In this document: positions 1 to 21,183 of the stretch, piece after piece | Numbering within the stretch: position 1 is the first letter of the stretch | Layout of the letters: each line of letters opens with the position of its first letter | DNA from: Candidatus Woesearchaeota archaeon | Lineage (GTDB): Archaea > Nanobdellota > Nanobdellia > Woesearchaeales > JACJVW01 | Direction: 5' to 3' | DNA: 32,000 bases | Assembly (NCBI GenBank): GCA_046496745.1 | Contig: JAWOGQ010000090.1 | Span: 7,861-39,860, forward strand | The notes under the pieces: model-generated | Told to the model about the DNA's origin: nothing | Seen by the model: only the letters and a program-made list of their open reading frames with translations | Database searches by the model: none | Made by a program: the position numbers and the translations under genes

Positions 1-642
1 ATCTCAAACCTTCTTGTGGGTAACCAGGGCCTTTTCAGGAGATTTCTCAAGCAGCGGCCTAAGGGGATGATACTGCTTCTTGATAATGCTGTAGCCTTGC
101 CAAGGAAGAGTTATGAATTGCTGCAATACTACTTTGATCAGGATTATATCAAGTCAATCGTTATAACAACAAAAGATCACAAGAAACTGGAGCTTCCAGG
201 AAGCCTTAAGGACAGGATTGGAAAACGGATTTTCAAGACCAAATCGCTATCCATGGACGAGGCTGTGGAACTTGTGCTTGACAGGCTGAACCAGGACCTG
301 ATCTCAAAGGATAACCTGGAGAAGCTGTTCATACTTTCAGACAAGAACATGAAGAAGTTCCTTGCAAACTGTGAGACAGTCCTCAAGTACATGGTGGACA
401 ATGATCTTGAAGAGATCGATTTCAAGACAATAAGCAAGGTTGCCGGAAATGACGAGGGAGATGAGGATGAAGAGGATGTCTTTATCTGCACAGAATGCGG
501 TGAAGAGCTTGTCAAGGTAGGTGAGCATTACAGGTGCAAGAACTGTGACATGTATTGTCCGGTCTGTGGAGTGCTTATTGAGGAAGAAGATTATGAATGC
601 CCAAACTGTGGTGTGCAGTTTGAAGATGAAGAGGATGAGTAA
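1..642 (+). CDS. AAA+ ATPase paralog (ORC/Cdc6- or ExeA-like, AAA_22-type), 5'-truncated by the window edge, with acidic linker and C-terminal double zinc ribbon
   Basis: The frame is open from base 1, so the GTG at 16 is probably internal. A Walker-B-like KGMILLLDNA lies near the start and no Walker A is present in the window. It aligns by eye (~30% identity) with the downstream paralog at 644..1333. The tail has four Cys pairs (CTEC, CKNC, CPVC, CPNC) after a DEGDEDEED linker. Confidence 0.6.
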   Translation: MSNLLVGNQGLFRRFLKQRPKGMILLLDNAVALPRKSYELLQYYFDQDYIKSIVITTKDHKKLELPGSLKDRIGKRIFKTKSLSMDEAVELVLDRLNQDLISKDNLEKLFILSDKNMKKFLANCETVLKYMVDNDLEEIDFKTISKVAGNDEGDEDEEDVFICTECGEELVKVGEHYRCKNCDMYCPVCGVLIEEEDYECPNCGVQFEDEEDE

Positions 643-643
643 A

Positions 644-1333
644 ATGTGGTACGAAGAATACGATTTTATCTCAAATCCATTTACCATAAAGCCACAGGAT
701 AGCTCCGAAGATTTCTTCGGGCAAAAGACCCTTATCAAGAAGGTGATAAACCATGTCAAGAAAGGTGAGGTCTGTGTTGTAAGGGGTAAGTATGGTACTG
801 GGAAGACAACTATACTGAAAGGCATAATCGACATGTACAAGGGCAAGCGTAAGGTTGCTTATTACAATGCTTATACTTCTGAGAGGAGTATTGATTACGA
901 GGATATCCTTGTCCAGGGAGGAAGCAAGATGTCAACCTTCTTTGGATTGAAGAGCAAGGGGATGATACTGCTTCTTGATGAGGCTCATAACCTGATGAAA
1001 GGAGATTTCGAAAGGCTTGCAAACTATTATCTTGATGGTTATTTCAAGTCAGTCATACTTGTAACAAGCAAAGTGGATTTCACTTTTCCAAGCATAGTGA
1101 AGGACCTTGTCAGTGACAGGGACTATGAGCTGGAGAAGATGGGTGAAGAGGATGCTTTCAAGATGGTTGAGAGCAGGCTTGAAGGGGTTGAGCTTCTTGA
1201 CAAGAAGACAGTCAAGGATATTCTCAAGAAAAGCGATTCACCAAGGGATTTTCTCATGCGATGCGAGGATGCCTGCCGTTCAGCTGTTGAACGGGGTTCT
1301 GAAAAGGTCGAAGAGAAGGATATTCCTGCCTGA
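644..1333 (+). CDS. AAA+ ATPase (ORC/Cdc6- or ExeA-like, AAA_22-type)
   Basis: Walker A GKYGTGKTT and Walker B GMILLLDEAH are present. The N-terminus MWYEEYDFISNPF resembles the ExeA/AAA_22 leader, and the C-terminal SPRDFLMRCEDACRSAVERG resembles the Cdc6 lid (GDAR-type) segment. I chose the ATG at 644 because GAGG lies 9 nt upstream and it starts just after the upstream stop. ATG 626 and 635 are in-frame alternatives. The track start at 521 would overlap the upstream gene by ~120 nt. Confidence 0.75.
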   Translation: MWYEEYDFISNPFTIKPQDSSEDFFGQKTLIKKVINHVKKGEVCVVRGKYGTGKTTILKGIIDMYKGKRKVAYYNAYTSERSIDYEDILVQGGSKMSTFFGLKSKGMILLLDEAHNLMKGDFERLANYYLDGYFKSVILVTSKVDFTFPSIVKDLVSDRDYELEKMGEEDAFKMVESRLEGVELLDKKTVKDILKKSDSPRDFLMRCEDACRSAVERGSEKVEEKDIPA

Positions 1334-1334
1334 A

Positions 1335-1352
1335 CGAAAGATTTAAAAAATA
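1335..1352 (+). promoter_or_regulatory. BRE/TATA-like archaeal promoter for the 1374 ORF
   Basis: CGAAAGATTTAAAAAATA. The TATA part is centred ~28 nt upstream of ATG 1374, a spacing consistent with a leaderless transcript. It matches the consensus seen at 7139, 8860 and 15171. Confidence 0.45.
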
Positions 1353-1373
1353 CTTTTTTTCTCTTACTATATA

Positions 1374-1580
1374 ATGCCAAAAAAATGTATTCTATGTGGG
1401 GAACCTGCACTTTATTGTGTAAAGGGTACGTCTGATTATTATTGCGAGGAGTGCGCAAAAGAGAATTTTGCGGATATTGCCTTGCTGGTAAGAGTTGAAG
1501 ACATAGCCCGTAAACTTAAGGAGCGCCTGGATGAGATCAAGGTGGATGAAGACGGCCAGGTCATTGTAGATAAGGATTAG
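1374..1580 (+). CDS. small zinc-ribbon protein (68 aa), family not recognised
   Basis: Two Cys pairs (CILC ... CEEC) are followed by a charged helical tail. A promoter-like element sits at the right distance upstream. The stop overlaps the convergent gene's stop by 4 nt. Confidence 0.55.
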   Translation: MPKKCILCGEPALYCVKGTSDYYCEECAKENFADIALLVRVEDIARKLKERLDEIKVDEDGQVIVDKD

Positions 1581-2107
1581 ACTTCTTTTTCAAGCTCTCG
1601 TAAGGGTATTGAAAGCTTTCCTGGAACGAATCTAATGGCTCCTGCCCATGATTTATACTTGAAATGCGCAGTTCTTACTTCTTCTCCTACTAACAAGTCT
1701 GAGTTGTGGAGCTTCTCAGGGAAATCGCATTTCTTCTGTTTTGCGGCAATGAAGGCGTAGTATCTTCCTCCCCCCCGGGAGAAACGGATTGCTGCGAGGA
1801 TGTGTTTCCCTTTTCTTCCAACGACTCTTGTCTTTACTGAAAGATAGCTTGACATCTCAGGCATTATTGCCTCAAACATCGGGTCAAGGACAGTATCCTT
1901 TTCCTGGGAGGTCTTTACTTCTGGCTCTTTTTTCAGGATATCTCTCATCTCATTTTTTATCCGGGGTGTCTCTATGAATTCGAGGGATGGAACTTTCTTT
2001 ATCAGAAGATATATCCCATAGGCTGCAGCTGCAGCAAGAATAACGTACAATAGAGGGTCAATTCCGGGGCTGATTATGGTTCTCACTATCCTGATTGTTC
2101 CTCGCAA
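1577..2107 (-). CDS. membrane-anchored hypothetical protein
   Basis: An N-terminal hydrophobic helix (LLYVILAAAAAYGIYLLI) precedes a ~130-aa soluble domain. The track start is TTG at 2107. GTG at 2086 lies ~29 nt from a GTTTAAAT element on this strand and is an alternative start. No family recognised. Confidence 0.5.
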   Translation of the reverse strand: MRGTIRIVRTIISPGIDPLLYVILAAAAAYGIYLLIKKVPSLEFIETPRIKNEMRDILKKEPEVKTSQEKDTVLDPMFEAIMPEMSSYLSVKTRVVGRKGKHILAAIRFSRGGGRYYAFIAAKQKKCDFPEKLHNSDLLVGEEVRTAHFKYKSWAGAIRFVPGKLSIPLRELEKEV

Positions 2108-2160
2108 AGTATTTAAACTTTTTGTGAGTCAATATTTGAAGTGTTGTACAGGATCTGACC

Positions 2161-2176
2161 AAAAAATATTTAAGAA
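2161..2176 (+). promoter_or_regulatory. possible TATA-containing promoter of the 2210-6956 operon
   Basis: AAAAAATATTTAAGAA lies ~40 nt upstream of GTG 2210. This would leave a short leader carrying the GGGGGG Shine-Dalgarno-like run at 2199-2204. Confidence 0.3.
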
Positions 2177-2209
2177 TGTTCTACTATACAGTGAAAACGG
2201 GGGGACAAC

Positions 2210-4696
2210 GTGGACTTTACTGAAGCATTAAAGCATATTGATGATTTCACTTTCTCTAAAGATATCTCAGATTATCTTGATTCAGAGATAGATAAATATT
2301 CTAATGGTGGTTATGTCAGGCTTTCTGATCTTGTAAGTATGATTGATGAGAATCTTTATCGGAGTATCCGACCAGAAACTGTTGTAAAAAAGGAGGAAGC
2401 ACAGAAAGCATTGCGTTCAATCATGCTTGAGCATCCAGAGGGATTCGGTGATTATATGCAGAATCTTGAGGAACGTCTGGAGGTTCAGGCTGATCCTTCT
2501 CAAGACTATAGTTCTATGCTTGAGCATTATGCGCGACAGAATCGGCAGAAAAGTAATGATGCGGTTCCATTGTCCAGGCTGGTCAGCCTGTTCTATGATG
2601 ACCCAAATCCTAATACTGTAAAGAATAAGGTCTATAATGTAAAGCCCCATCTCCTGGAGGACCTGGAGGATAAGCTTATCTGCAAGACTTCAAGGGTATC
2701 GGTGCCTATGGAGAATGTTGAGGAAGTGGTTGGTGAAATATCAGCCCATTTCCATGAAACTGCATGGGATAATGTCATGGCTAACCTTTCCAGGGAAGTC
2801 TCCAGTATTGATGCTTTGACTTATAAGCCTGATAAGACAAGGAATAAGTCCAGTATTGATACTTTTGATAGGCAGGAGAACACTGACGAGAAATGGAATG
2901 AGGAGGAACAGTTCAATGTTGGTGCTTTTGATGGTCAGGCATATAATGAGAACCATTTCAGTGATGAATTGAATGCTTATTGCCAGGATAACCTTCAAAG
3001 GGGAATGATCCCTTTTAGCAGTCTCCTGGCATTGTTCTATCCTAAAAATGCCCGGCAGGCTGTATTTGCACGGACCAACAGGATAAAGGAGGAATTGAAG
3101 GAAGGCAAATTGACTTATCTACAGGATAAATCAGAGATAATAACAACAGGGCGAAATGAGAAGCTTATGGTTCATCCTGATTATGCTCCTGATGTGGTAA
3201 GGTATTTCATGACAGATAATGAAAGGTTAGATCATTTCCGGAAGAATATTTCTTATGCTAATAGGTCGGCTAATAGCTCAGGGATGTCTGATGCTTCTTT
3301 AGAATCATGCATCAGGAAAAAATTCTCCTCGTTTGAAACACATGAACAGGATTACATGCTTGAAAATCTTAATGGCGAGTATAGTCCTTTGAAGTTGCTA
3401 CATGCATCAGTGGATGCTTATCTTGAGATGCCTGCCAGTGAAAGAAGCCATTACAGCAGGAAAGAGGCTGTATCTTATGTATCAGATAAGCTTGGTATTG
3501 ATCCAGAAGATGCTAATGAGATCATACCTGGTGAGTTCTTGTTTCGCGTGGTAGCGACAAGGGATCTTGTGGACAAGAAAAAGCTTGAAGATTTTCTGGC
3601 TGAAACTAATTATTCTGAAAAGCCTGAAGTGACTGGAATTCCAGGTAACCCAGTATCTCCTGCATCGTCTTATGAATCAGCAGATTCCTCTGCAGGAATG
3701 GCGATTGCTCCTGATAAGGATTTGCCTGAATCTTCTGAAGATAAAACCTTATCCTCTGATAAATCATTTTCAGGAGAAGATACTATTCTTGTCAAAGACC
3801 CTGAAACAAGATCTATCTATGATGAAAGTCCTGATTCTTCCGATTCTGTCAAAGACCCTGGAATTGATACTACTTATGATAAACCTGCTACATTACCTGA
3901 ATCCTTTGGTAAATCAACTGGATCCTTTGATAAATCAGTTGAATCTTTTGAAGGGTTAGATGATACTGCTCCTGTTAAAGATTCTGAGATAGCTGATACT
4001 GTTCATGGTCCTGAGACAATTGATATCACTTATGATAAGGGTTCTTCCGATTCAGTTCAAGGGCCTGAGATAATATCCCGGGAGAAGCTTTATGCAACTA
4101 ATGCAAAAAAGTTTCTCAAACAAGTGAATCCTTATCTTTCGCCTGCGCTTATAGATGATATCCTTAGAAGGGCGGATAATACGGTCGAGAAACAGCGAAA
4201 GTTTTTTACCACCTCTGCTTTGATTGATAGTTTCCTGCAGATGGAGGATTGCCAGTTTGAGGAACTAAGAATCAAGGAACAGTATTCCTTAGCACCAAAC
4301 GAGGTCGTTGGTTATGTGGATCATTCACGTTTTGTTGATTCTTTGCCAAAGGAGGAACTTGAGCAATTTGGTTCCCTGAATTCCTTCATAATAAAACACA
4401 GGTTAACCGGGCCTTATACAAGGAATGGAAATGTTTGCAGGGCATCATATGACTTATTGAAGGACCATCTTAAGGTATCAATCAAGAGTATCCCTGAGTA
4501 CCAGCCGCCTACATGGATGGCAGGAGAAACAGAATACACTGATTTTAAGGGTGCGGTTGACATGATGGGAATACGGATGAGCGAGTTTACAAAATACGCT
4601 GATAGATTCACACTTGAGGATTTTGGGGTCACTGGAGTCCCTTTGCATGAAGTCATTGATATAAAGAACAGGGAGCTTTCAAATGGGATTAAATGA
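2210..4696 (+). CDS. large hypothetical protein (828 aa), upstream partner of the sigma-70-like gene
   Basis: A long uninterrupted ORF with a GTG start preceded by GGGGGG, overlapping the downstream gene by 14 nt. It contains two copies of a ~30-aa [VI]P.S.L..LFY module (nt 2564-2659 and 3008-3100). It also has a Ser/Asp/Pro-rich degenerate-repeat region (nt ~3617-4075) and a C-terminal HTH-like segment (IRMSEFTKYADRF). No known family recognised by eye. Confidence 0.8.
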   Translation: MDFTEALKHIDDFTFSKDISDYLDSEIDKYSNGGYVRLSDLVSMIDENLYRSIRPETVVKKEEAQKALRSIMLEHPEGFGDYMQNLEERLEVQADPSQDYSSMLEHYARQNRQKSNDAVPLSRLVSLFYDDPNPNTVKNKVYNVKPHLLEDLEDKLICKTSRVSVPMENVEEVVGEISAHFHETAWDNVMANLSREVSSIDALTYKPDKTRNKSSIDTFDRQENTDEKWNEEEQFNVGAFDGQAYNENHFSDELNAYCQDNLQRGMIPFSSLLALFYPKNARQAVFARTNRIKEELKEGKLTYLQDKSEIITTGRNEKLMVHPDYAPDVVRYFMTDNERLDHFRKNISYANRSANSSGMSDASLESCIRKKFSSFETHEQDYMLENLNGEYSPLKLLHASVDAYLEMPASERSHYSRKEAVSYVSDKLGIDPEDANEIIPGEFLFRVVATRDLVDKKKLEDFLAETNYSEKPEVTGIPGNPVSPASSYESADSSAGMAIAPDKDLPESSEDKTLSSDKSFSGEDTILVKDPETRSIYDESPDSSDSVKDPGIDTTYDKPATLPESFGKSTGSFDKSVESFEGLDDTAPVKDSEIADTVHGPETIDITYDKGSSDSVQGPEIISREKLYATNAKKFLKQVNPYLSPALIDDILRRADNTVEKQRKFFTTSALIDSFLQMEDCQFEELRIKEQYSLAPNEVVGYVDHSRFVDSLPKEELEQFGSLNSFIIKHRLTGPYTRNGNVCRASYDLLKDHLKVSIKSIPEYQPPTWMAGETEYTDFKGAVDMMGIRMSEFTKYADRFTLEDFGVTGVPLHEVIDIKNRELSNGIK

Positions 4697-6956
4697 TTTG
4701 TTGACGGTTGAGGATACTAAATGGGTGCATGAACAACAGCTTATAGATTATGGCATGAAAGGGTATCTTAACAAGCTTGTATGGTCAAAGGATGATGAGC
4801 ATGGTTCATCTTATCTTGCATGCGAGGTAAAAGGCATGCTCCTGAGAGAAGGGCTTGTCTCGCGTAATGGTTATAGCGGGTTTGTTGATCCGCTGAAGCT
4901 TGCAACAACACTTGCGAGAAATTATGATATGAGTGTGGGACAGATTCTCGGAAGAATCGAGGAAGATCAGAGTTTATGGGACGAATATGTGGAAGATAAT
5001 CAGATACAAAGGGGGGTTCCTGCTGAGCGTGTGAGCGACTTATTCTATGGGAAGAGCCAGAAGTTCTCGATTGAGCATATGGATCGTGTGAATACTGCTG
5101 TAAAAGAAGATATCCCTCCTATATCTATAGATAGCACGAATTGCAACCCATTCCAGGCGCTGGCTTATCTACTTGAGAATGTGGGTAAGAAGAGTGCAGA
5201 AGAGATGGCATATGAGATCGGAGAGGATACAACAAAGATTGAGCTTTTTCTCTATAAGAATGATTTTTTAGTGCTTACAGAGGATGAATTGAGTGAGAGG
5301 CTGGCAAGATACAAGAAAGGGGATGTCGAGTTTCCAAGTACTTTCTCAGATAAATATGATGACATGTCAATCTCTGAGTTCGTGAAAAAGACAAATGTCT
5401 CTTATGGGGATACGCTGAAGCTTACGCATGCAGGATTACTGGAGAGTTATGTCACTTATCTGAAATCTGAACATACTGGTTCTCATCCGGTGCATAAGAT
5501 TACAGGAAGAAGCATAATCTATCATCTGAGAGAATTGCGTAACGAGGAATACCAGAAAAAGGTTGACGAGGCACTTGCTATAGATGATATCCCCTGGGAC
5601 AATAAGAAGGGAAAAGAGTTGGATTCATGGTCAAAATATGGAGTCTCTCCTTTCAAGAGACATATCAACCAGCTGAAAAAGATTCCTGTCTTCACGAGGG
5701 AAGAGGAAAAGGCACACTTTGAAAAGATAAATCAGGAGAAAGATAATATCCTATCTGAGGTGGCTTCAACAAAATATATGCAGTCTGAACTCGAAAAGTT
5801 ATGTGAGCATGCAGAGAAGGGTTCAAGGGGATTCTTGAGAGCTTATCATCATAAGATACTCGATGGAGCAGATGTTGAAGAAGTAAGGGAGAACTTTCTT
5901 GAACAGTACTCCAGGTTTAAAGAAGGGGAGGCTGATGTGAGATCCCTTGATCTGTCATACCGGATAACAGAGAGGGTTGTCAGGAATCTGAAGAATGTAT
6001 GCTGGGATCTCAGGATACTGGATCAGAAGAAGGCTACTTTTGATGAACAGATAAACAGGGTAGGTTCTGCATCTGATCATGAATTGGCAAGGCGGGTGAA
6101 GTATAATCGACAGATGTCAAGAAAAATTCAGGGCAAAAAGGAAAGTCTACTTAATGATTTTGAGATGACGCAGGAGGAGCTTGAAAGCAAGATGGAAAGG
6201 ATTGTATCAAGTGAGGCCAATATCGAACACCTTACGCATGAACTTGTCCTGAGGAATGCCAGGATCCTGTCATACATGTCTTTGCCTCATCAATATTCTT
6301 ATTCAGTAGAGGGTCTTATGCATGCTGCTGAGTTGTTCGATCCGAAAAAGGGTAACAGGTTCATGACATATGCTCTTTCCTGGATCAGACAGAGCATTAA
6401 GCGTTCAAAGCATAATACCGGGTCTACAATCAGAAAACCAGTCCATATATGGAGTAAGGTTGAGGCCATGACTGAGACAGAGATAGATTTCATGCATCAA
6501 TACAAGCGGCCACCTACCATGAAGGAGCACTGGAAGGTATACAATGAGAAATCAGAGGAGGATATCTCTTTCAAGAGATTCCAGGAACTCAAGATAATTG
6601 CTGCAGATACTGTTTCTTTGGATTCTCCTGTTAATGGAGGCAACAGTTTTGAGAGAAATGAGAGTAGCCTGATCGATTTTATCGAAGGAAAGGGCAGCGA
6701 GCATTACCTGACTCCTGAGAAATTAGTCGAGAAAAATCAATTAAAGGACAGAACTCAAAAACTGATGGCTGAACTGACTGCAAGGGAATCAAAAGTCCTT
6801 CGCATGCGTTTTGGTATAGGTTATGAGCCGCATTCTCTTGAAGAGGTAGGATCTGACCTTGAAGTCACAAGGGAGCGTGTCAGACAGTTGGAAAAGAAAG
6901 GTCTCAATAAACTCAAGCATTACAAAAGGTCGAGGCAACTCAAGCCTTTTTCATAG
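4683..6956 (+). CDS. sigma-70-family protein (regions 1.2, 2, 3, 4 present) with a novel ~320-aa N-terminal extension
   Basis: Region 1.2: SPFKRHINQLKKIPVFTREEEKAHFEKI. Region 2: GNRFMTYALSWIRQSIKRS...STIRKPVH. Region 4: LTARESKVLRMRFGIGYEPHSLEEVGSDLEVTRERVRQLEKKGLNKLKH, near-identical to the RpoD LTAREAKVLRMRFGI...LEEVG..F.VTRERIRQIE.KALRKLRH. AGGGAG lies 8 nt upstream of ATG 4683. The frame has a stop at 4662-4664, so 4683 is the first possible start. Confidence 0.9.
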   Translation: MGLNDLLTVEDTKWVHEQQLIDYGMKGYLNKLVWSKDDEHGSSYLACEVKGMLLREGLVSRNGYSGFVDPLKLATTLARNYDMSVGQILGRIEEDQSLWDEYVEDNQIQRGVPAERVSDLFYGKSQKFSIEHMDRVNTAVKEDIPPISIDSTNCNPFQALAYLLENVGKKSAEEMAYEIGEDTTKIELFLYKNDFLVLTEDELSERLARYKKGDVEFPSTFSDKYDDMSISEFVKKTNVSYGDTLKLTHAGLLESYVTYLKSEHTGSHPVHKITGRSIIYHLRELRNEEYQKKVDEALAIDDIPWDNKKGKELDSWSKYGVSPFKRHINQLKKIPVFTREEEKAHFEKINQEKDNILSEVASTKYMQSELEKLCEHAEKGSRGFLRAYHHKILDGADVEEVRENFLEQYSRFKEGEADVRSLDLSYRITERVVRNLKNVCWDLRILDQKKATFDEQINRVGSASDHELARRVKYNRQMSRKIQGKKESLLNDFEMTQEELESKMERIVSSEANIEHLTHELVLRNARILSYMSLPHQYSYSVEGLMHAAELFDPKKGNRFMTYALSWIRQSIKRSKHNTGSTIRKPVHIWSKVEAMTETEIDFMHQYKRPPTMKEHWKVYNEKSEEDISFKRFQELKIIAADTVSLDSPVNGGNSFERNESSLIDFIEGKGSEHYLTPEKLVEKNQLKDRTQKLMAELTARESKVLRMRFGIGYEPHSLEEVGSDLEVTRERVRQLEKKGLNKLKHYKRSRQLKPFS

Positions 6957-7138
6957 GGAAATCCTCAACTAAATTTTTTCATAAATTAATGCTTGCACTC
7001 AATCGTTTATCCTGCGGATCCTTTAGATATTGCCTTGCGTAACTTCTTTTATAGGTGTCATCAATCAGTACCGCATAAACCTGTTATTCCTGTTTGCTGC
7101 ATTTGAGTGTACGCATTCTATGGTTTCTGGAAAGCGCT

Positions 7139-7155
7139 AGAAAGATTTATATAAG
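7139..7155 (+). promoter_or_regulatory. BRE/TATA archaeal promoter
   Basis: AGAAAGATTTATATAAG, with the TATA centre ~26 nt upstream of ATG 7176. This implies a leaderless mRNA. Confidence 0.5.
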
Positions 7156-7175
7156 TATATCCTTGATAAAAATGC

Positions 7176-7841
7176 ATGTTTGAAACAGATATAAACCTGG
7201 CAAAAAGATTCATGGATGCTCATCTCCAGGGTGCTGAACTTGTTCTTGTGACTGGTTCAAGGGTCTTTGGTATAACAGAGAGCGATTTTGACCTTTGCGT
7301 GGTAGGGGATTTTTCCGAAGAAGAACTTCGTCGTTATACAAAGTTTGTCACTCTTGAAAAAAAGGTATTCTCAGGTGTTGAGTTTGAGGTACAGGTGGTC
7401 TCATGGGATGAGATCGAAAAGGCTATGGGGAATTATCTTTCCTGGGAAGCATGGCATTTCCATAATGCTTATGTGTTGCATGATCCTTCTGGAAGGTTTG
7501 AAAAACTTAAAGGGCCTTTTCCTGAGTGTAAGGAGGATATGCTGAGGCTCTATGAGCATGCATATGACAGCGTGAAGAACGCGAGAAAAGCGCACATGAG
7601 AGGGATGTATGCTACAGAGGCATCACACAGTTCAGAGGCTCTGCAATATTCATTGTCAGTGCTTTTCTTGTTGAACCGCTCGTATATCCCGCCTGTAAAA
7701 TGGAGGCTTTACTTGTCCGCTAACCTTGAAAAGACGGTCCCTTACGAGGAATCATACATGCTTGAGCAGGTAGAAAGCTTTCTTGAGGGTGTGCGAAAGC
7801 TCCTGGCACAGGAGGTGCCTGTAGAAAGGGTAGAAGGATGA
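7176..7841 (+). CDS. Pol-beta-superfamily nucleotidyltransferase domain protein (KNTase-like, helical C-terminal half)
   Basis: GSRVFGITESDFDLCVVGD fits the minimal nucleotidyltransferase signature G[SG]-x(9-13)-[DE]x[DE]. The C-terminal ~120 aa look all-helical. Confidence 0.65.
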   Translation: MFETDINLAKRFMDAHLQGAELVLVTGSRVFGITESDFDLCVVGDFSEEELRRYTKFVTLEKKVFSGVEFEVQVVSWDEIEKAMGNYLSWEAWHFHNAYVLHDPSGRFEKLKGPFPECKEDMLRLYEHAYDSVKNARKAHMRGMYATEASHSSEALQYSLSVLFLLNRSYIPPVKWRLYLSANLEKTVPYEESYMLEQVESFLEGVRKLLAQEVPVERVEG

Positions 7842-8452
7842 AACTTCTGGATATTCTCTTGCGTCCGAAGAAAGGTATCGATGAGATCAGGGAGGATGGA
7901 CTGGGACAGGCAGCATTCTTTCTTGTGACGCTCATACTGTTTGTCTTCTTGTTTCTCACCTATACATATCTCCAGCAGATAAACGCTTACCTTCAGCAGA
8001 TCGGGTTGGGGATAACGATAACTCCAAAGGTCTATATACTCGCGTATGTGGGGTTCTCGGTATTCTTCATAATCCTTGCATTTTTCAGGTGCTGGATAAT
8101 ACATCTTTTTGTGCGCCTTTTCAAAGGGAAACATGGCTATGCTGAGACATACAAGGCACTGGTGTATGGGCGGGCGCCGGAATACATATCTGCACCGCTC
8201 CTGTTCTTGATTTTCATCCTGGTATTGAGGGGAATGTATCTATGGGTCATTATTCCTGGGTTATTGGTTGCAGGTCTTTCTGTATATCAGATGGTGCTCC
8301 GGTCCAGTGCATTGGCAAGCTTGCAAGGACTCAGTAAGGGAAAGGCTTTTCTGAGCATATATGTCCTTGGTTTTATCGTGCAGTTGCTGGTCTTGGTTGT
8401 AATCGAGGTTATCTTGATATTGCTTTTTCTTGTGGTTAGATCAATCGGCTGA
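7838..8452 (+). CDS. polytopic membrane protein, Yip1-domain-like
   Basis: A polar N-terminus (MKLLDILLRPKKGIDEIRED) is followed by about five hydrophobic helices. An ATGA start/stop overlap links it to the upstream nucleotidyltransferase gene. Confidence 0.6.
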   Translation: MKLLDILLRPKKGIDEIREDGLGQAAFFLVTLILFVFLFLTYTYLQQINAYLQQIGLGITITPKVYILAYVGFSVFFIILAFFRCWIIHLFVRLFKGKHGYAETYKALVYGRAPEYISAPLLFLIFILVLRGMYLWVIIPGLLVAGLSVYQMVLRSSALASLQGLSKGKAFLSIYVLGFIVQLLVLVVIEVILILLFLVVRSIG

Positions 8453-8487
8453 TTGGTAATGTATATCTGCTGTGGTGCAATCTTGGG

Positions 8488-8522
8488 TTCAAAACGGAGC
8501 CAGAGAATTTTTTTGTTTTGAA
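8488..8522 (+). terminator. hairpin plus oligo-T tract downstream of the membrane-protein gene
   Basis: TTCAAAAC (8488-8495) pairs with GTTTTGAA (8515-8522), giving an 8-bp stem. TTTTTTTGTTTT at 8508-8519 is an archaeal-style oligo-T terminator signal. Confidence 0.45.
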
Positions 8523-8579
8523 AGCGGGTCATTTGAAATCATAGGTAAATTAAAATAGTGGTATTTGTAAGTAATCCTT

Positions 8580-8837
8580 ATGGATAATAAAAATGATATG
8601 GATGAGATGGATGGAATGAATGACATGGATGGTGCATTTGAAGATGATGCAAGAGAAGTCACAATAATTGGCAAGCAATTGGAGTGCAATTTCTGTGGGA
8701 ATAATACCTTCTATGAAGTGGATGTCAAACTGAACACCACAGCAACAACTTTTTTTAGCGGGGTATGGAGTTTGCTTGCAGAGAATGCTAAGGCCTATAT
8801 CTGCTCAAAATGCGGAAAAAAGCAAGAATTTGCTTGA
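8580..8837 (+). CDS. small zinc-ribbon protein with Met/Asp-rich N-terminus
   Basis: CNFC ... CSKC Cys pairs flank a ~45-aa core. The N-terminus MDNKNDMDEMDGMNDMDG is encoded by ATGGAT-like repeats. An AAATTAAAATA element is centred ~27 nt upstream of the ATG. Confidence 0.55.
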   Translation: MDNKNDMDEMDGMNDMDGAFEDDAREVTIIGKQLECNFCGNNTFYEVDVKLNTTATTFFSGVWSLLAENAKAYICSKCGKKQEFA

Positions 8838-8859
8838 GTCCAAGACAGGAGAATTTTTT

Positions 8860-8874
8860 AGAAAGCTTTATATT
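8860..8874 (+). promoter_or_regulatory. BRE/TATA archaeal promoter
   Basis: AGAAAGCTTTATATT, with the TATA centre ~26 nt upstream of ATG 8897. It follows an ATTTTTTA T-run (8853-8860) that could terminate the upstream gene. Confidence 0.45.
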
Positions 8875-8896
8875 GGATTGGCAATAAACTATGCTA

Positions 8897-9187
8897 ATGA
8901 AGAAAATTATCCTGATACTTTTGTTCTCCTTGGCCTTGGTGGCCTGCGATCATTCAGAGGATAATATAAAGAAAGAGATCGAGAAGGCCAATTATTGCGA
9001 GACAAAAGATGACTGCATCGATGTTGGAGGCAAATGCCCTTTCGGATGTTATGTGTATGTCAATGAGAATGAGGCTGACAGGATAAAAGGTCTTGTCGAT
9101 TCGTATGAATCGGATTGCGTATACGGATGCATGGCCTGTTTTGATGTCGAATGCAGGGATAATCGGTGCGAGCCTGTCTGTGAATAG
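8897..9187 (+). CDS. secreted cysteine-rich putative lipoprotein
   Basis: The signal peptide MKKIILILLFSLALVAC has a lipobox-like LVAC. The mature part has 10 further Cys. ATG 8891 (track) is 2 codons upstream; I prefer 8897 from promoter spacing. Confidence 0.6.
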   Translation: MKKIILILLFSLALVACDHSEDNIKKEIEKANYCETKDDCIDVGGKCPFGCYVYVNENEADRIKGLVDSYESDCVYGCMACFDVECRDNRCEPVCE

Positions 9188-9205
9188 TTCCTGATTTTCT
9201 AGGGG

Positions 9206-9586
9206 TTAATTAATAGGTTCAGATGTGGGTTGGCATTTTTTATCATCTTGTTCGCACGAAGCTTTTTCATCGAATAATTCCCTGAAAGAATTCTCGCCTT
9301 TTTTGACTGTCTTTTCATACCTCTTTTGTTTGAAATAGGGTGCTTTTGGGTCTAATTCCTGAAGGATTTTTTCAGTTGCCTGCAGGTCGTTTAGGTCTGT
9401 ATTGTTGATTCTTTGGAGTAAATCTGTAAACTCTGAAGGATCGAGCTCTTTTTGGCGGTAGTTGACATAGTTTTGGGTGCGGGTTATTATGTCATCTATG
9501 TTCTCTTTATGGATGATTCCCAACAATATCTTATTGAGCTTGATTGCAAGTTCTTGTCTAGTGATCTTGATTATGTATTCCTGCAT
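9206..9586 (-). CDS. hypothetical protein (126 aa, helical, charged)
   Basis: A clean ORF with an ATG start, divergent from the 9693 gene. No motif recognised. Confidence 0.5.
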   Translation of the reverse strand: MQEYIIKITRQELAIKLNKILLGIIHKENIDDIITRTQNYVNYRQKELDPSEFTDLLQRINNTDLNDLQATEKILQELDPKAPYFKQKRYEKTVKKGENSFRELFDEKASCEQDDKKCQPTSEPIN

Positions 9587-9692
9587 ATGGGGGTGGTAGA
9601 TTTTCTTGTATTAGAATTTATCTGTATTCTATCGTATCTGTATAGTGGTAAAAATAGGAAATTTTATAAATAAGAAAGGTTTTCCTAAGGTT

Positions 9693-10541
9693 ATGAAGGT
9701 TGCACTTGATACTGATATGAACAGGTTGATGGAGGATGCCAGGCAGGAAATAGTGAGTAATTTCCGCCGTTTTTGCGTGCATGAGGATGAGCCTGATGCA
9801 AGGGATTATCTGGGCCTGGAAGATCAGATCGTGGAAGCTGCCAAGCATGACTATAAAGAGCAACATGGGAAACCCTTCAGGGGTGTACTGACGGACAGTA
9901 TCCATAAGGACCTGCTTCTTTCTCTCTGGAATGAGGAGTCAGGAAATAAGCTGGAGAAGATAGTAAAGCCCAGGAGGGAAGGATTTAATCACATAAGGAA
10001 TATCTATTTAGGATCATCTTTCCTGAAGCTTCCAGATGAGGCCAGGGAACTTTTCACTCCTGTGGAAAGGATGGTATTGTATGATGGTGTTGCACGATTC
10101 AAGGCGCAACTTCCCAAGTATGTCCCGCGCAAGACATCAAATGGTGTGCCGACTGAAAAGCTCTTTGATATGCCTGTATATCTTCAGCTTCATGAGCTGG
10201 CATCTACTGCATTCGAAAAGTCAGCGAAAAAAGCCAGAGAGATCGGTAATGTTGGTTATGAAAATCTTGAGAATACTTATGGGATAAATTCTATGGAGTT
10301 GTTTGACCTCAAGGTGCAGGCTCTTTCAGGGGAATGCCAGGAAGAGATCGGGCGTAACCTGCAGAAACCGAATGCGGTTTATGAAAAGCACCGGATTGCA
10401 AATGGCAGGGAGGTTCCTGTGCTGCAGGGAATAACTGACATATACCAGAAAGATCCCTGGACGAGGGTTGGGGGACAAAAGGTTCCTTCAAAGCGACTTA
10501 TAGGAAACTATATAGGCCTTATCACTTCAATGGATCCTTAG
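9693..10541 (+). CDS. hypothetical protein (282 aa)
   Basis: ATTTTATAAATAAG (9661-9674) is centred 26 nt upstream of ATG 9693, so I prefer this start over the track's GTG at 9645, which lies upstream of the TATA. No family recognised. Confidence 0.6.
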   Translation: MKVALDTDMNRLMEDARQEIVSNFRRFCVHEDEPDARDYLGLEDQIVEAAKHDYKEQHGKPFRGVLTDSIHKDLLLSLWNEESGNKLEKIVKPRREGFNHIRNIYLGSSFLKLPDEARELFTPVERMVLYDGVARFKAQLPKYVPRKTSNGVPTEKLFDMPVYLQLHELASTAFEKSAKKAREIGNVGYENLENTYGINSMELFDLKVQALSGECQEEIGRNLQKPNAVYEKHRIANGREVPVLQGITDIYQKDPWTRVGGQKVPSKRLIGNYIGLITSMDP

Positions 10542-10568
10542 ATTCTTTGAGTTTTTTTCTTATCAGGG

Positions 10569-11072
10569 TCAATGATTACTGCCCCTTGAAAGATGGCGGA
10601 TGATTGTTGCCATGCTGTTGGGCTCGCCCTGGATTATGTAGTGGTTGAGGTTGGAGAGATTCTTTATCCGATATACATAGTATTGCAATTCGCGAGGTGT
10701 AAGGCCTCCTTGTTCAGAAGGGACATTGCGTTTGCTGAATACGGGATCCAGTATCGACATGTCTATCACCAGGAGGACTTTTTCTGCCTGGCGTGCAGCA
10801 ACCATCACTGAGTCACATATCTCCTGGTCACTTTCAATAAGCATCTCCTTATCGCTGAACACCCGATAGCCTTTAGGGTATTCCATGCGGGTGCCAAGGA
10901 AGATTGTCCTGGGAAACTGCTTGTGATAGGCGCTGATGTATATCATCTTGTTGTTTTCAGACAAGAAGAGGGAGATGTCCTTTGTTGCGTCTTTTCTTAT
11001 GAGGAAATTATCATGTTCAAGGCTGCCTTCTTTCTTGTGGGGAAACGGAATGTTGTATTCTGAGACTATCAT
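10569..11072 (-). CDS. short, degenerate ureohydrolase (arginase/agmatinase)-fold protein
   Basis: VLLVIDMSILDPVFSKRNVPSEQGGLTPRELQYYV parallels the family motif [LV]S.D.D.LDP.FAPG.G.P..GGL[TS].RE. It is only 167 aa, against ~280-300 for typical family members. An ATGA overlap links it to the upstream CNNM gene. Confidence 0.45.
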   Translation of the reverse strand: MIVSEYNIPFPHKKEGSLEHDNFLIRKDATKDISLFLSENNKMIYISAYHKQFPRTIFLGTRMEYPKGYRVFSDKEMLIESDQEICDSVMVAARQAEKVLLVIDMSILDPVFSKRNVPSEQGGLTPRELQYYVYRIKNLSNLNHYIIQGEPNSMATIIRHLSRGSNH

Positions 11073-12283
11073 CTTGTACTCACCCTTACGAGCAATCGCT
11101 TGCCTGTGCTTTCTACCATCATGGTGGCTTTTTTTGTGGAGTAGGTGTCTTTTTCCTCAAGTTCCTTGTTGAGGCGTCGTTTAAGGAAAGTCTCTATTGT
11201 CTCGTACTCTCTTCCCTTGAATCTAAGGTGACATACCATGTTGAGGTCATAGATGGTGGTATTCCCATCGATTATGTAATTGTTCTCATCCACCTTGCGG
11301 ATGTGTGTCTTGTCAATGTCTGTCTCATCGTATATCTCTCCTACTATCTCCTCAAGGATATCTTCGAGGGTGAGTATGCCTGCAATAGAGCCATCATCTT
11401 TCTTTAGTATGGCAAAATGAACTTTCTTCTTTTGCAGGATGCGAAGCAGGTTATCAAGGAAGATATTTTCCGGAGCAAATATTGCGGGGCGCATCAGTTC
11501 CCTGACTGTAAGGTCTGTTCGCAGGTTTCGAAGTATGTCCTTGATATAGAGTATACCTATCAGGGAATTGTGGTTGTTTGAGAAGACAGGTATCCTGGAG
11601 AAACCTCTCCTGTTTGCGCGGGGTATTATCTTTGAAACCGGGTCTTCTTCATTGACATAGAACACTTTATCGAAAGGGACCATTATCTCATTTGCTTTCA
11701 TATCAGAGAACCTGAATATGTTGTGGATCATCTCTCTTTCGTCTTCTTCAACCTCTCCTAGCTCTTCTCCGAGGTTGATCACTGATTTTATCTCATCTTC
11801 GGTTATCTCAGGACGTATGTGCCGGGGAAATAGGCGGGTTATGAATCTTGTGAGATGCTGGAACATGAAGCTTAGCGGATAGAAAAGCTTGACGAGAAGG
11901 TTGATAAAGGGCGCTGTCATGAGGCATATCTTTTCGTTGTGGACCATCGCGATGTTTTTCGGGGTTATCTCGCCGAACACGAGTATTATGAAAGTCATGA
12001 TGCCTGTTGCGATGCCTACTCCTACTGATCCGAAAAGATCTATGGCTATTCCAGTTGCAATTGCGCTTGCTCCAATGTTCACGAGATTGTTGCCTATGAG
12101 GAGGGTTATTATCAATCTGTCATAATCATCCTTAAGTTTCTTGATGAGGCGTGCTTTCTTCTCTTTTTTTTGTATAAGATGATGGATCCGGAAGTTGCTC
12201 ATAGAGACAAAGGCTGTTTCTACTCCTGCAAAGAATGCTGAGCCTGCAATGAGTATTACCAGTAAAAGTATATCAAATATCAT
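11069..12283 (-). CDS. CNNM/HlyC-CorC family transporter (DUF21 membrane domain + CBS pair + CorC_HlyC)
   Basis: The N-terminus MIFDILLLVILIAGSAFFAGVETAFVS and LLIGNNLVNI are typical of DUF21. These are followed by a CBS-pair-like region and a C-terminal transporter-associated domain. Confidence 0.8.
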   Translation of the reverse strand: MIFDILLLVILIAGSAFFAGVETAFVSMSNFRIHHLIQKKEKKARLIKKLKDDYDRLIITLLIGNNLVNIGASAIATGIAIDLFGSVGVGIATGIMTFIILVFGEITPKNIAMVHNEKICLMTAPFINLLVKLFYPLSFMFQHLTRFITRLFPRHIRPEITEDEIKSVINLGEELGEVEEDEREMIHNIFRFSDMKANEIMVPFDKVFYVNEEDPVSKIIPRANRRGFSRIPVFSNNHNSLIGILYIKDILRNLRTDLTVRELMRPAIFAPENIFLDNLLRILQKKKVHFAILKKDDGSIAGILTLEDILEEIVGEIYDETDIDKTHIRKVDENNYIIDGNTTIYDLNMVCHLRFKGREYETIETFLKRRLNKELEEKDTYSTKKATMMVESTGKRLLVRVSTR

Positions 12284-19142: not shown

Positions 19143-20197
19143 ATGTATTCCCTCTCAATCTCCAGTTGGTCCCATGTTGGATATTCTTCGATTATTGCAC
19201 AGGGTTCTTTTAGCTTTCTTTTTATGTGCTTCATTGCTGCAGCTCTTGTCAGGACACGGTTCTTGTCTGTATCTATGAAGATGTGCTTTTCAGGAATGTT
19301 GCATTTTCTTATTATGCGCTCTTTTGTATCTTCAAGGGAATATTTCTCGGGAAAGACTGCTCCTCTTATCAGGAGGCCTTCATCAGTTATCTTGTCAAAT
19401 GGTTTTGCTGCGTTCTTTGCCCTGCGCTTGATACGGTTCGCCATCTGGACAGCGTCCTTGAGGCGGGTTGTGCAGTAATGGACATTTACCCCTGAGTCTT
19501 CCAGGGTTTCCATGAGCTTTGTTGCTTCCTCTTCGCTTCCCTCTATTGCGTATGAGAGCTGTGACTTGATGTTGAACCCTTTCTCCTCAAGCTTGTTTGC
19601 GTTGGTATCTGATAGTTCTAGCTCGTTGAGGTTGATGAAATCCACCTTGTCTTTCACGTATTCTATCAGTGGGCGTGCATCTGTTCCAGGTATGACTGGT
19701 ATCTCGATCCCTATGTCCCAGTCGAATTCTCCTGCAAGCTTTAGCCTTGGCCAGTCCTCTTGTGATTCGTAATCTGGATGGAAGCGTATCTCGTCAAGAC
19801 CAGCATCGTGGAGTGCCTTCAGTTTTTCTTTAGTGACATTCTTCAAAGGAGTGTATAGGTGGATGTGGAAGTGGCCGAATTCCTGCTTTAGTTTTCTTAT
19901 GATCCTTGTTGTCCGCTCTATCTTCAGGAGAGGGTCGCCGCCTGTGATGCCTGCGCCTCTTGCATCTGATATCCGGGCTTCTTCCAGGATCTCCTCATCA
20001 GATGTCACTGGCCTCTCATTGGCATAGATTACGTCCTTGTTCTTCTTCTCATCAGAAAGAGGGCAAAAGTAGCATGACTTGTTGCAGAGGCCGGTTATGA
20101 AAAGCACCAGCTTTTGGCCTTTCACGCATTGGCTGCAGCCCTTTGGAAGGTCGTTTATCTTTTTCGAGAAGTAAGGTGTATCTTTCATGTATTTCAT
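19139..20197 (-). CDS. radical SAM protein (COG2108-like, related to PFL-activating enzymes)
   Basis: CNKSCYFC is the CxxxCxxC radical-SAM cluster motif, and GGDPLL is a SAM-binding motif. ATG 20188 (MKDTPYF) is an alternative start ~28 nt from a TATTTAAAAAG element on this strand. Confidence 0.8.
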   Translation of the reverse strand: MKYMKDTPYFSKKINDLPKGCSQCVKGQKLVLFITGLCNKSCYFCPLSDEKKNKDVIYANERPVTSDEEILEEARISDARGAGITGGDPLLKIERTTRIIRKLKQEFGHFHIHLYTPLKNVTKEKLKALHDAGLDEIRFHPDYESQEDWPRLKLAGEFDWDIGIEIPVIPGTDARPLIEYVKDKVDFINLNELELSDTNANKLEEKGFNIKSQLSYAIEGSEEEATKLMETLEDSGVNVHYCTTRLKDAVQMANRIKRRAKNAAKPFDKITDEGLLIRGAVFPEKYSLEDTKERIIRKCNIPEKHIFIDTDKNRVLTRAAAMKHIKRKLKEPCAIIEEYPTWDQLEIEREYI

Positions 20198-20503
20198 TAA
20201 TCTGTGTCTTTTTAAATAATTAACTGGTTTCAGGGTGTGGTTTATAAAGATAAGTATAAAAATAAGCTTTTAAATTAAATCTAATAAAAGAATTTAAATA
20301 AGTTTCTATCTAGGGTTTTTTAGAAGGTTTAAAAAAAGAATAAATAAGAATATAAAATAAAGTATAAAAAATAAGTAAGAAAAGGTAATCTAATAAAGTA
20401 TTAAATAAAGGGTTTAAATAATAACTTAAATAATATCTAAAATAATAGATAATATAAAAGCAAAAATAATATAAATAAGCAGAATAAATATAATTATAGA
20501 AAG
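20198..20503. repeat. extremely AT-rich intergenic tract with dispersed short repeats
   Basis: By eye it is far more AT-rich than the rest of the window (not computed). A ~25-nt imperfect direct repeat occurs at 20277-20302 (AAATCTAATAAAAGAATTTAAATAAG) and 20386-20410 (TAATCTAATAAAGTATTAAATAAAG). There are at least five copies of AAATAAG. The flanking genes are divergent. Confidence 0.6.
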
Positions 20504-20632
20504 ATGGAAATTTATAAGAAAAGTTTCGAGATCTGTGATGAGGAAGCCTATTCCCTTGATTTTTGGGTCAATGGTGATGATCTGCTTATCGGATATTTCA
20601 GTGATGTAGATCACCCAAATCTTTATATATAA
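20504..20632 (+). CDS. possible small ORF (42 aa), unsupported beyond composition
   Basis: MEIYKKSFEICDEEAYSLDFWVNGDDLLIGYFSDVDHPNLYI. GC content rises sharply here relative to the AT tract. It is below the 60-aa cutoff of the supplied track. No family recognised. Confidence 0.3.
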   Translation: MEIYKKSFEICDEEAYSLDFWVNGDDLLIGYFSDVDHPNLYI

Positions 20633-20652
20633 GTAAAAAAGTAAGTATAAAC

Positions 20653-20820
20653 ATGAATACTACCACTTTCAGGAGGAAATTGTACAAAAGGGGTTCGAGT
20701 TATGAGACAACAATCCCGATGCCTCTATTGTTTGCAGTCGATAAGACCAAAAAGAATAATGTCTTGTTCGTGTATGATCGGGATCAGGACAGATGGTATA
20801 TCGAATTTGAGGAATCATGA
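20653..20820 (+). CDS. small AbrB/SpoVT-like DNA-binding protein (55 aa)
   Basis: MNTTTFRRKLYKRGSSYETTIPMPLLFAV resembles the swapped-hairpin AbrB/MazE N-terminal pattern (R.v.k.G.S...tIP...). TTTATATATAAG is centred 26 nt upstream of the ATG, implying a leaderless mRNA. Not in the supplied track (<60 aa). Confidence 0.5.
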   Translation: MNTTTFRRKLYKRGSSYETTIPMPLLFAVDKTKKNNVLFVYDRDQDRWYIEFEES

Positions 20821-20847
20821 GTCTTGGCGAGACACGGGTTGGCGATT

Positions 20848-20873
20848 GGGTTTTTAGGGTTTCCTAAAAACCC
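20848..20873. promoter_or_regulatory. perfect 9-bp-arm palindrome/hairpin upstream of the 20887-23825 operon
   Basis: GGGTTTTTA (20848-20856) and TAAAAACCC (20865-20873) are separated by 8 nt. It is preceded by a TTGGCGA direct repeat (20824-20830 and 20839-20845). It lies between the AbrB-like gene and the AAGGTGA ribosome-binding site of the next gene. Confidence 0.4.
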
Positions 20874-20886
20874 TTAAGGTGATAAG

Positions 20887-21183
20887 ATGAATTATGTAAG
20901 GATAAGGGATGTGATTCCCAGGCTGGATATGGATGAGCTTATAAAGATCAAGCGGGATCTGGATTCAGGATCGATTCATCTGAAAAAATTAATTAATGAC
21001 GAGATTGCAAAAAAGAAGAATGAGCATTCAGGGGTTTGCGCGGTGTGCATGAAGCCAATCGATCCTGCGGATCATGATACTTTCACACTCATATTCGGCC
21101 CGGATGATTTCAAGAAGAAGGCGTCCTTTTGCGCGCATGATTGCATGACTTATTTCATTTCAAGGCTTAAAAAAGAGGTTTAG
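20887..21183 (+). CDS. small Cys-motif protein, TRASH/YHS-like zinc or metal ribbon
   Basis: CAVC-x27-FCAHDCMTYF resembles the TRASH pattern C-x2-C-x(19-22)-C-x3-C with a slightly longer spacer. Its stop lies 2 nt before the GTG start of the P-type ATPase. Confidence 0.5.
   Translation: MNYVRIRDVIPRLDMDELIKIKRDLDSGSIHLKKLINDEIAKKKNEHSGVCAVCMKPIDPADHDTFTLIFGPDDFKKKASFCAHDCMTYFISRLKKEV

Follow-up and report, generated by a model that had tools for sequence, protein, structure and literature searches.

The window analysed here, that is, a stretch of 32,000 nt from contig JAWOGQ010000090.1 (positions 7,861 to 39,860) of a Candidatus Woesearchaeota archaeon, carries a gene of the sigma-70 family at 4683-6956, on a contig with otherwise archaeal (DPANN) genes. 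The product is a group-1 sigma-70 homologue over its C-terminal ~435 aa and belongs to a small clade, all members of which have lost the region 2.1/2.2 motif of bacterial sigmas and have kept region 4 and, in part, regions 2.3/2.4. In every full-length member the gene is preceded by a conserved partner gene. Tentatively, and with slightly less than even confidence, these features are read as an old acquisition of a bacterial rpoD, whose product would now be a core-independent DNA-binding regulator acting together with the partner.

Bacterial sigma factors and the TBP-TFB system of archaea and eukaryotes are textbook alternatives, and a sigma under selection in an archaeon raises the question of what use it has without its polymerase. 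The first-pass annotation of the window had implied that such a gene is a novelty. This is not so, since woesearchaeal sigma-70 genes are already published and NCBI names the present one 'MAG sigma-70 family RNA polymerase sigma factor' of Candidatus Woesearchaeota archaeon. According to the accessible text of Castelle et al. 2021 (PMC8204110), sigma-70 genes (fam00359) are "particularly prevalent in Woesearchaeota" and co-occur with TBP, TFB and TFE; mis-binning was ruled out, anti-sigma factors were not found and the mechanism of the sigmas is called unclear. As far as could be found, the anatomy of the clade (loss of region 2.1/2.2, a predicted winged-helix-like array at the N-terminus and the partner gene) is undescribed.

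The gene and its parts are the following.

4683..6956, plus strand: sigma-70-family gene, 757 aa (Pfam, phmmer, NCBIfam, AlphaFold2 model, Foldseek)
4683..5624, plus strand: N-terminal clade-specific domain, aa 1-314, in place of region 1.1 (AlphaFold2, clade alignment)
5646..5732, plus strand: region 1.2-like helix, aa 322-350, SPFKRHINQLKKIPVFTREEEKAHFEKI (MAFFT against bacterial region 1.2; NCBIfam models starting at aa 323-325)
5733..6236, plus strand: helical non-conserved region (NCR), aa ~351-518, ~170 aa, linking region 1.2 to region 2
6237..6326, plus strand: degenerate region 2.1/2.2, aa ~519-548 (column analysis, motif pattern, coverage of Pfam Sigma70_r2)
6327..6449, plus strand: regions 2.3/2.4, aa ~549-589 (Pfam, phmmer, column analysis)
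6450..6749, plus strand: region 3, aa ~590-689 (phmmer to RpoD, MAFFT, model)
6750..6953, plus strand: region 4, aa 690-757, with a primary-sigma-like C-terminal tail (Pfam Sigma70_r4)
6974..6979, plus strand: oligo-T run TTTTTT, 18 nt past the sigma stop, a possible archaeal termination signal

The sigma-70 homology is supported by sequence and structure searches alike. The Pfam profile Sigma70_r4 matches aa 694-746 over its entire length (positions 1-50 of 50, E 1.7e-17, 63.1 bits, cut-off 24.1), and Sigma70_r2 matches partially at aa 544-575 (positions 33-64 of 71, E 1.5e-5, 25.1 bits, cut-off 24). A phmmer search with the protein against all PDB chains retrieved RpoD, SigA and RpoS structures (E 1e-35 to 1e-21, aa ~476-756), with RpoD/SigA as the best matches (E 1e-35 to 1e-27). 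The full-length sigma models of NCBIfam start at aa 323-455 and run to aa 756. For instance, the RpoD model PRK05658 covers aa 455-756 with an E-value of 1.2e-48, at 166.6 bits versus a cut-off of 555, and TIGR02393 scores 154.8 bits versus 354. The superfamily model TIGR02937 is the only one above its cut-off (71.6 versus 42.9), all equivalog models being below theirs. The full-length AlphaFold2 model, computed from a 72-sequence alignment, has a mean predicted local distance difference test (pLDDT) of 86.9, and Foldseek superposes it on E. coli sigma70 in holoenzyme structures over ~490 columns (E 3e-15, TM ~0.5 on the target), which include the segment upstream of region 2.

The first-pass annotation had described this open reading frame (ORF) as a sigma with colinear region 1.2, spacer and regions 2, 3 and 4, preceded by a ~320-aa extension foreign to sigmas, and this description is borne out at the coordinates given (region 4 at aa 690-747), for regions 1.2 and 3 by alignments and the model. 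Its word 'complete' holds for the order of the regions and fails on two points: region 1.1 is absent, the N-terminal 314 aa having a different, clade-specific predicted fold, and region 2.1/2.2 is degenerate and, clade-wide, ~9 aa shorter than in bacteria. Similarly, the Pfam models to which it referred were recovered for region 4 and for a part of region 2, and the scan of the protein gave no match to Sigma70_r1_2 or Sigma70_r3, nor to Sigma70_r1_1.

The remaining regions depart from the bacterial pattern to different degrees. In the region 1.2-like helix, the E of TREEE is the sole bacterially conserved residue that is kept. The NCR, of which E. coli sigma70 has its own, is modelled by AlphaFold2 as long helices with pLDDT >90. 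Region 3 carries a ~7-aa insertion in 3.0/3.1 and another of 4-5 aa in the 3.2 linker, which is of low pLDDT; its helices are present in the model, and weak Pfam matches to region 3 were obtained with three relatives (P0009, P0010 and P0003).

To delimit the family, 1.84 billion representative proteins were searched exhaustively with a profile. The full-length architecture occurs in only seven clusters (P0001-3 and P0007-10; 25-45% identity), scoring 351-1399 bits versus 214 bits at most for the next matches, which align in the sigma part only. Two of the latter that were looked up, P0013 and P0014, turned out to be normal rpoD genes of bacteria, located behind dnaG, with ~25-30% identity. The eighth family member, P0011 (JGI 3300072015), is a 480-aa relative which consists of the sigma part only and has the same deletion in region 2.2; overlapping ORFs of 335 and 446+ aa precede it, and the N-terminal domain may be encoded there as a separate protein, in a split architecture. 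A scan of genome contigs for further members gave two already-known loci only. The contigs of the family are labelled Nanoarchaeia or Woesearchaeota, and the neighbors of the relatives include TopoVI A/B, PriS, archaellin and Hef (beside P0008) and L15e (beside P0009). The same indels distinguish all eight members from bacterial sigmas, which argues for a single old acquisition followed by vertical descent.

In order to describe what has changed within the sigma part, the eight family members were compared column by column with 64 bacterial-type sigmas at the positions conserved in at least 85% of the bacterial set. E. coli residue numbers were transferred through P0005, whose region 2 is taken to be identical to that of E. 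coli sigma70; region 2 as a whole corresponds to aa 519-589 of the window protein. Region 2.1/2.2 is the most conserved segment of sigma factors and contacts the clamp helices of beta', in an interface that is established structurally. As far as the accessible text of PMC2715106 goes, which cites Joo et al. 1997, region 2.2 is a highly conserved determinant of core affinity. In the family, V387, S389, I390, Y394, N396, R397 and G398, and likewise D403, L404, Q406, E407, G408, N409 and I410, are substituted or deleted across the clade. The DLIQEGNxGL of region 2.2 has become (S/T)xxxEGL, within a replacement motif, (S/T)xxxEGL(M/I)xAxxxF, which is conserved in 8/8 members. The canonical pattern of region 2.2 was found in 140 of 146 non-family proteins, the other six being three fragments and three near-canonical variants, and in none of the eight family members. 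Coverage of Sigma70_r2 agrees with this picture: family members match profile positions ~29-68 at most, with no more than 37 bits, or do not match at all, and positions 1-28 are never covered, versus positions 1-71 and 82-88 bits in bacterial controls. Sigma70_r4 reaches 53-64 bits in every family member.

The residues which face DNA show the opposite behavior. Retained in regions 2.3/2.4 are F419, F427, S428, T429, Y430, A431, W434, I435 and Q437, together with R441, I450, R451, P453, V454 and H455. An exception is W433, which is Ser in the window protein and S/S/T in its subclade and is kept in some other members; P0003 lacks further residues of regions 2.4/3.0. In region 4, the recognition helix TRERVRQLE (E. 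coli T583-E591), including the TRERVRQ of region 4.2 that reads the -35 element, is intact. R562, L573, E575, G577, R584, E585, R586, R588, Q589 and E591 are invariant in 8/8 members, F563, G564 and T572 are retained in at least 6/8, and T583, I590, A594, L598, R603 and L607 are also kept. Since the motif of region 2.1/2.2 is gone and the residues of regions 2.3/2.4 and 4 remain, it seems, judging from these alignments, that the protein no longer docks on a bacterial core in the canonical way and that the DNA-reading surfaces are under selection. The first-pass annotation had offered several options for the role of the protein; because the core-binding region is lost, a repurposed DNA-binding module is favored over a factor acting on a foreign RNA polymerase (RNAP).

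This pattern also bears on whether the protein could still be a true sigma of a bacterial-type RNAP, whose genes would lie in another part of the genome, in a virus or mobile element, or in a bacterial partner cell. Its group-1 layout and intact region 4 would suit such a role, PHROG 351, a family of phage sigmas, matches the sigma part, and an rve-family integrase is encoded directly downstream of the P0002 sigma gene (3096-3866 of L001, the longer ENA contig). On the contrary, the loss in region 2.1/2.2 is clade-wide, whereas nearly all bacterial-type sigmas among the matches retain the motif, and the family genes have ordinary archaeal chromosomal neighbors in varied contexts. Relatives of the N-terminal domain were found neither in IMG/VR viral contigs nor in JGI metagenome contigs, and a secretion signal is not evident. 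The literature gives TBP, TFB and TFE in DPANN and, in the accessible text, mentions no bacterial-type polymerase (PMC8204110). A role as a true sigma thus appears quite improbable. The contexts being chromosomal and varied, an origin from a virus or mobile element is not supported either; in the PHROG scan of the neighbors, the AAA ATPase alone was matched, by P-loop families of a generic kind.

The partner gene, which the first-pass annotation had missed, lies directly upstream of the sigma gene with the following elements.

2161..2174, plus strand: A-rich/TATA-like box, AAAAAATATTTAAG, ~36-49 nt upstream of the partner GTG, a putative archaeal promoter of the two-gene operon, with B recognition element (BRE) and TATA box
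2210..4696, plus strand: partner gene, 828 aa, GTG start (NCBI hypothetical protein R6V53_06045)
4670..4675, plus strand: Shine-Dalgarno-like AGGGAG, 7 nt before the sigma ATG, within the 3' end of the partner gene

A partner ORF stands directly upstream in all seven full-length members, with its stop overlapping the sigma start. In the window the overlap is 14 nt (sigma start at 4683, partner stop at 4694-4696); the same stop/start overlap exists at the junctions in L001, L003, L004, L005, L006 and L008, with a purine-rich, Shine-Dalgarno-like stretch in most of them. The arrangement suggests that partner and sigma are translationally coupled. In L004 and L005, too, the partner gene is preceded by a box similar to that at 2161. 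No conserved third gene was seen around the pair among the family loci.

The partner varies in length, being elsewhere of 691 aa, of 607 aa or split into 399 + 222 aa, and its conservation is confined to the C-terminal ~200 aa (nt 4082-4693), which are found upstream of every full-length member and contain the motifs NPYL...CRAxFDxLK...IPEYxPPTW...EYxDxxGA...LGIxxS. It matches no model of Pfam, NCBIfam, PHROGs or PADLOC, apart from weak sub-threshold hints of HTH_17, and a search of the protein database returned the self-match only. At aa ~470-620 (window 3618-4070) the window copy has a low-complexity linker rich in Ser, Asp, Pro and Glu, with loose 'KDP...YD...DSSDSV' repeats, which is specific to it and absent from the homologues in L004, L005 and L006. 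By analogy with the bacterial dnaG-rpoD synteny, a degenerate DnaG was considered as the identity of the partner and is not supported, as neither Pfam nor NCBIfam gives such a signal. A repeat module shared by the N-terminal part of the partner and the N-terminal domain of the sigma is likewise unproven (BLASTP E 0.008): with a hidden Markov model of the module, partners score no better than shuffled sequences, and an hhalign comparison between the alignments of the sigma N-terminus and of the partner C-terminus is not significant.

The N-terminal domain of the sigma is predicted by AlphaFold2 to form four small helix/beta-hairpin modules of winged-helix-like appearance (pLDDT 78 for the domain alone), a secondary structure that recurs when the full-length protein is modelled, and is conserved in the seven clusters. 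Foldseek against PDB gave no match with E < 0.1. The best E-value is 0.14, and the non-significant list is dominated by winged helix-turn-helix proteins such as AbfR2, TFE-alpha, MarR and RPC3. Pfam gives only sub-threshold hints of MerR_2, HTH_12 and TrmB.

A long N-terminal extension is also a property of MzaA (~330 aa), which raises the question of a component of an Mza-related anti-virus defence. The overall sizes are similar, aa 323-756 correspond to positions 328-713 of the NCBIfam profile for MzaA (NF041931) with an E-value of 6.7e-45 and the PADLOC model of MzaA reaches 1.9e-24. The alignment, however, concerns the sigma part only, its 154.1 bits compare with a cut-off of 800 and do not exceed the score of the generic RpoD model, and the N-terminal parts do not align. 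When ten neighboring proteins were examined with PADLOC, no MzaB-E or other defence genes appeared; apart from the MzaA match of the sigma itself, the signals were of a generic P-loop kind and fell on the AAA protein (521-1333), while the partner remained without a PADLOC match. With the score under the cut-off and the accompanying Mza genes missing, an Mza system was rejected as highly improbable.

The surroundings of the gene are archaeal, in agreement with the first-pass annotation. The window encodes Spt5 (TIGR00405), an archaeal-type L11 (NF002232) and the D-aminoacyl-tRNA deacylase DTD2 (PF04414), as well as Elp3, a long FKBP26-type peptidyl-prolyl isomerase, FtsZ, arginyl-tRNA synthetase (ArgRS) and a sulfhydrogenase operon. 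The sigma gene lies within a contig of 39.9 kb, 10 kb from Spt5-L11, and NCBI labels both sigma and partner as Candidatus Woesearchaeota archaeon. The archaeal promoters that had been placed on both flanks correspond to A-rich/TATA-like boxes, one upstream of the partner at 2210 and one upstream of the next gene at 7176. The check on composition, suggested in view of possible chimerism, gave uniform values: GC is 0.40-0.45 across 1-12 kb, and the codon usage of the sigma gene is at a distance of 0.036 (Jensen-Shannon-type) from the window average, as low as for ArgRS or Elp3.

These data leave a negligible probability to an artefact, that is, to a bacterial rpoD fragment assembled or binned with archaeal DNA. 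It is true that the source is a metagenome-assembled genome and that bin labels of short contigs are unreliable. For instance, one relative, P0002 (in L010, CAZBGG010000183.1), is found on a 2.9-kb contig of the bin 'uncultured Methanosarcinales archaeon', which is probably a label problem. Nevertheless, besides the length of the present contig and its uniform GC and unremarkable codon usage, independent assemblies put the relatives between archaeal genes, the identity to any bacterial sigma is only ~25-30%, clade-specific domains are present and Castelle et al., in the accessible text, excluded mis-binning of woesearchaeal sigmas (PMC8204110). Chimeric assembly and mis-binning are therefore very unlikely.

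The regulator model can be outlined as follows. An ancestor within Woesearchaeales/Nanoarchaeia would have gained a bacterial group 1 sigma of the RpoD/SigA type once, long ago, and would have kept it under selection as a two-gene operon with the upstream partner. The clade has shed region 1.1 and the 2.1/2.2 surface which clamps sigma to the bacterial beta' coiled-coil, has retained both heads that read DNA (sigma-4.2 in full, sigma-2.3/2.4 in part), and has gained the N-terminal array of four winged-helix-like modules, which may add DNA contacts. Because the core surface is lost, the DNA heads are kept and the array is gained, the protein is proposed to be no longer a subunit of a bacterial-type RNAP, and the genome would encode no such core. 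It would form a stoichiometric complex with its co-translated partner, region 4.2 would probably read a TTGACA-like element, and the targets would be genes that the usual archaeal TBP/TFB/RNAP system transcribes. A precedent is sigma-A of B. subtilis, a primary sigma which in vitro recognises promoter DNA in the absence of core (PMC3035472).

Several points weigh against this model. The conserved melting residues of regions 2.3/2.4, the 3.2 linker and the C-terminal tail hint at a function associated with RNAP, because a simple helix-turn-helix regulator would not need them. DNA binding, the target sequence and the complex with the partner are predictions from sequence, and the partner has no recognisable domain. 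Furthermore, promoter-like sites of the sigma-70 type (at least 9/12) are not enriched in 1-12 kb (28 versus 25.6 +/- 4.6 expected). Matches of at least 11/12 to TTGACA-N16-18-TATAAT number four in the window versus 0.67 +/- 0.74 in first-order Markov simulations.

9462-9490, plus strand: 11/12 match to the sigma-70 consensus, within a coding region
8728-8701, minus strand: 11/12 match, within a coding region
23031, plus strand: 11/12 match, within a coding region
30564, plus strand: 11/12 match, within a coding region

Since all four are inside coding regions, this excess is treated as marginal, and it could be due to chance or to codon structure.

The main alternative is that the remodelled sigma binds the archaeal RNAP, for example with the altered region 2.2 on the clamp coiled-coil of Rpo1, where TFE and Spt5 dock and which is homologous to the clamp helices of beta'. 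In that case the sigma could serve in initiation, as an alternative or auxiliary factor, or could inhibit or modulate the enzyme, and the partner might be an adaptor. We consider this unlikely, though by no means far-fetched. Region 2.1/2.2 is not merely decayed, as its replacement motif is conserved in the whole clade; Y430 and W434, which serve strand separation, and the sigma-3.2 linker are retained; the full sigma layout is preserved in a model of high predicted confidence; and the fold list of the N-terminal domain includes TFE-alpha and the tandem winged helices of Pol III RPC3 type, none of them significant. On the other hand, the loss of W433 in the subclade of the window and of more 2.4/3.0 residues in P0003 suggests that a melting function is relaxed, and the archaeal flap and dock surfaces are known to be unlike the bacterial ones used by sigma-4 and sigma-3.2.

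A bolder version is decidedly doubtful. In it, the replacement in region 2.2 would dock the sigma on the clamp of the archaeal RNAP, the N-terminal array and the partner would be adaptors, and a hybrid, sigma-assisted pathway of initiation or promoter selection would operate beside TBP/TFB. If true, some Woesearchaeota would hold a natural bridge between bacterial and archaeal/eukaryotic initiation. Binding to the archaeal RNAP would, if it occurs, join the two initiation systems in a natural hybrid of a rare kind and offer a useful tool for the study of clamp-directed regulation. The unexplained sigma is in this way narrowed to two testable models, a core-independent regulator or a protein that binds the archaeal RNAP.

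Other features of the window lie apart from the gene pair. At its start, the adjacent ORFs 16-642 and 521-1333 are P-loop ATPase-like and are not conserved beside other family members. The former has sub-threshold zinc-ribbon matches at its end and may run off the window start; the latter has sub-threshold Pfam matches only (AAA_14, nSTAND and archaeal ATPase_2), and its true start is probably further downstream because the coordinates overlap those of 16-642. Terminator-like sites composed of a hairpin and a T-run show a mild excess in 1-12000 (17 versus 8.7 +/- 3.1 in shuffles).

A non-coding stretch of ~450 nt at 20198-20650 contains several imperfect direct repeats with TAAGTATAAA-like motifs and a pair of 24-nt inverted repeats 515 nt apart, and could be a regulatory or replication-related region; the bin 20001-21000 has the lowest GC of the window (0.33). 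Small ORFs are located near it at 20653-20820 and 20887-21183, and a 55-aa ORF after the stretch may be AbrB/SpoVT-like, to judge from its resemblance. On the minus strand, 27807-31522 is a four-gene sulfhydrogenase-like operon with scores below the equivalog cut-offs, whose products most resemble alpha (ShyA/HydA-like) and beta (ShyB/HydB-like, also AsrA-like) subunits, a small subunit of Oxidored_q6 type and one that binds FAD/NAD.

Among known systems, RpoD/SigA is the closest in both sequence and structure. The two have in common a colinear layout, in which regions 2.3/2.4 and 4 are matched by profiles and region 1.2, NCR and region 3 are placed by alignments and the model, the C-terminal tail of a primary sigma and a region 4.2 helix identical at R584, E585, R586, R588 and Q589. 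Unlike RpoD/SigA, the window protein has no region 1.1, a replaced 2.1/2.2 motif, insertions in 3.0/3.1 and 3.2 and a 314-aa N-terminal array; its gene belongs to an archaeon and follows a novel partner gene instead of dnaG, and its scores are below all NCBIfam equivalog cut-offs. MzaA, of ~700 aa, is likewise in the sigma-70 family and likewise has a long N-terminal extension of non-sigma type, but the N-terminal parts are dissimilar and no other Mza genes are nearby. The sigma-70 genes of Castelle et al. (PMC8204110) come from the same lineage and from verified archaeal contigs, and the accessible text of that paper deals with neither their architecture and residues nor the N-terminal array, the partner or the loss in region 2.2. 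As for B. subtilis sigma-A, its core-free binding is a side activity in vitro, whereas in the woesearchaeal protein the corresponding activity is proposed, by analogy, to have become the main evolved function.

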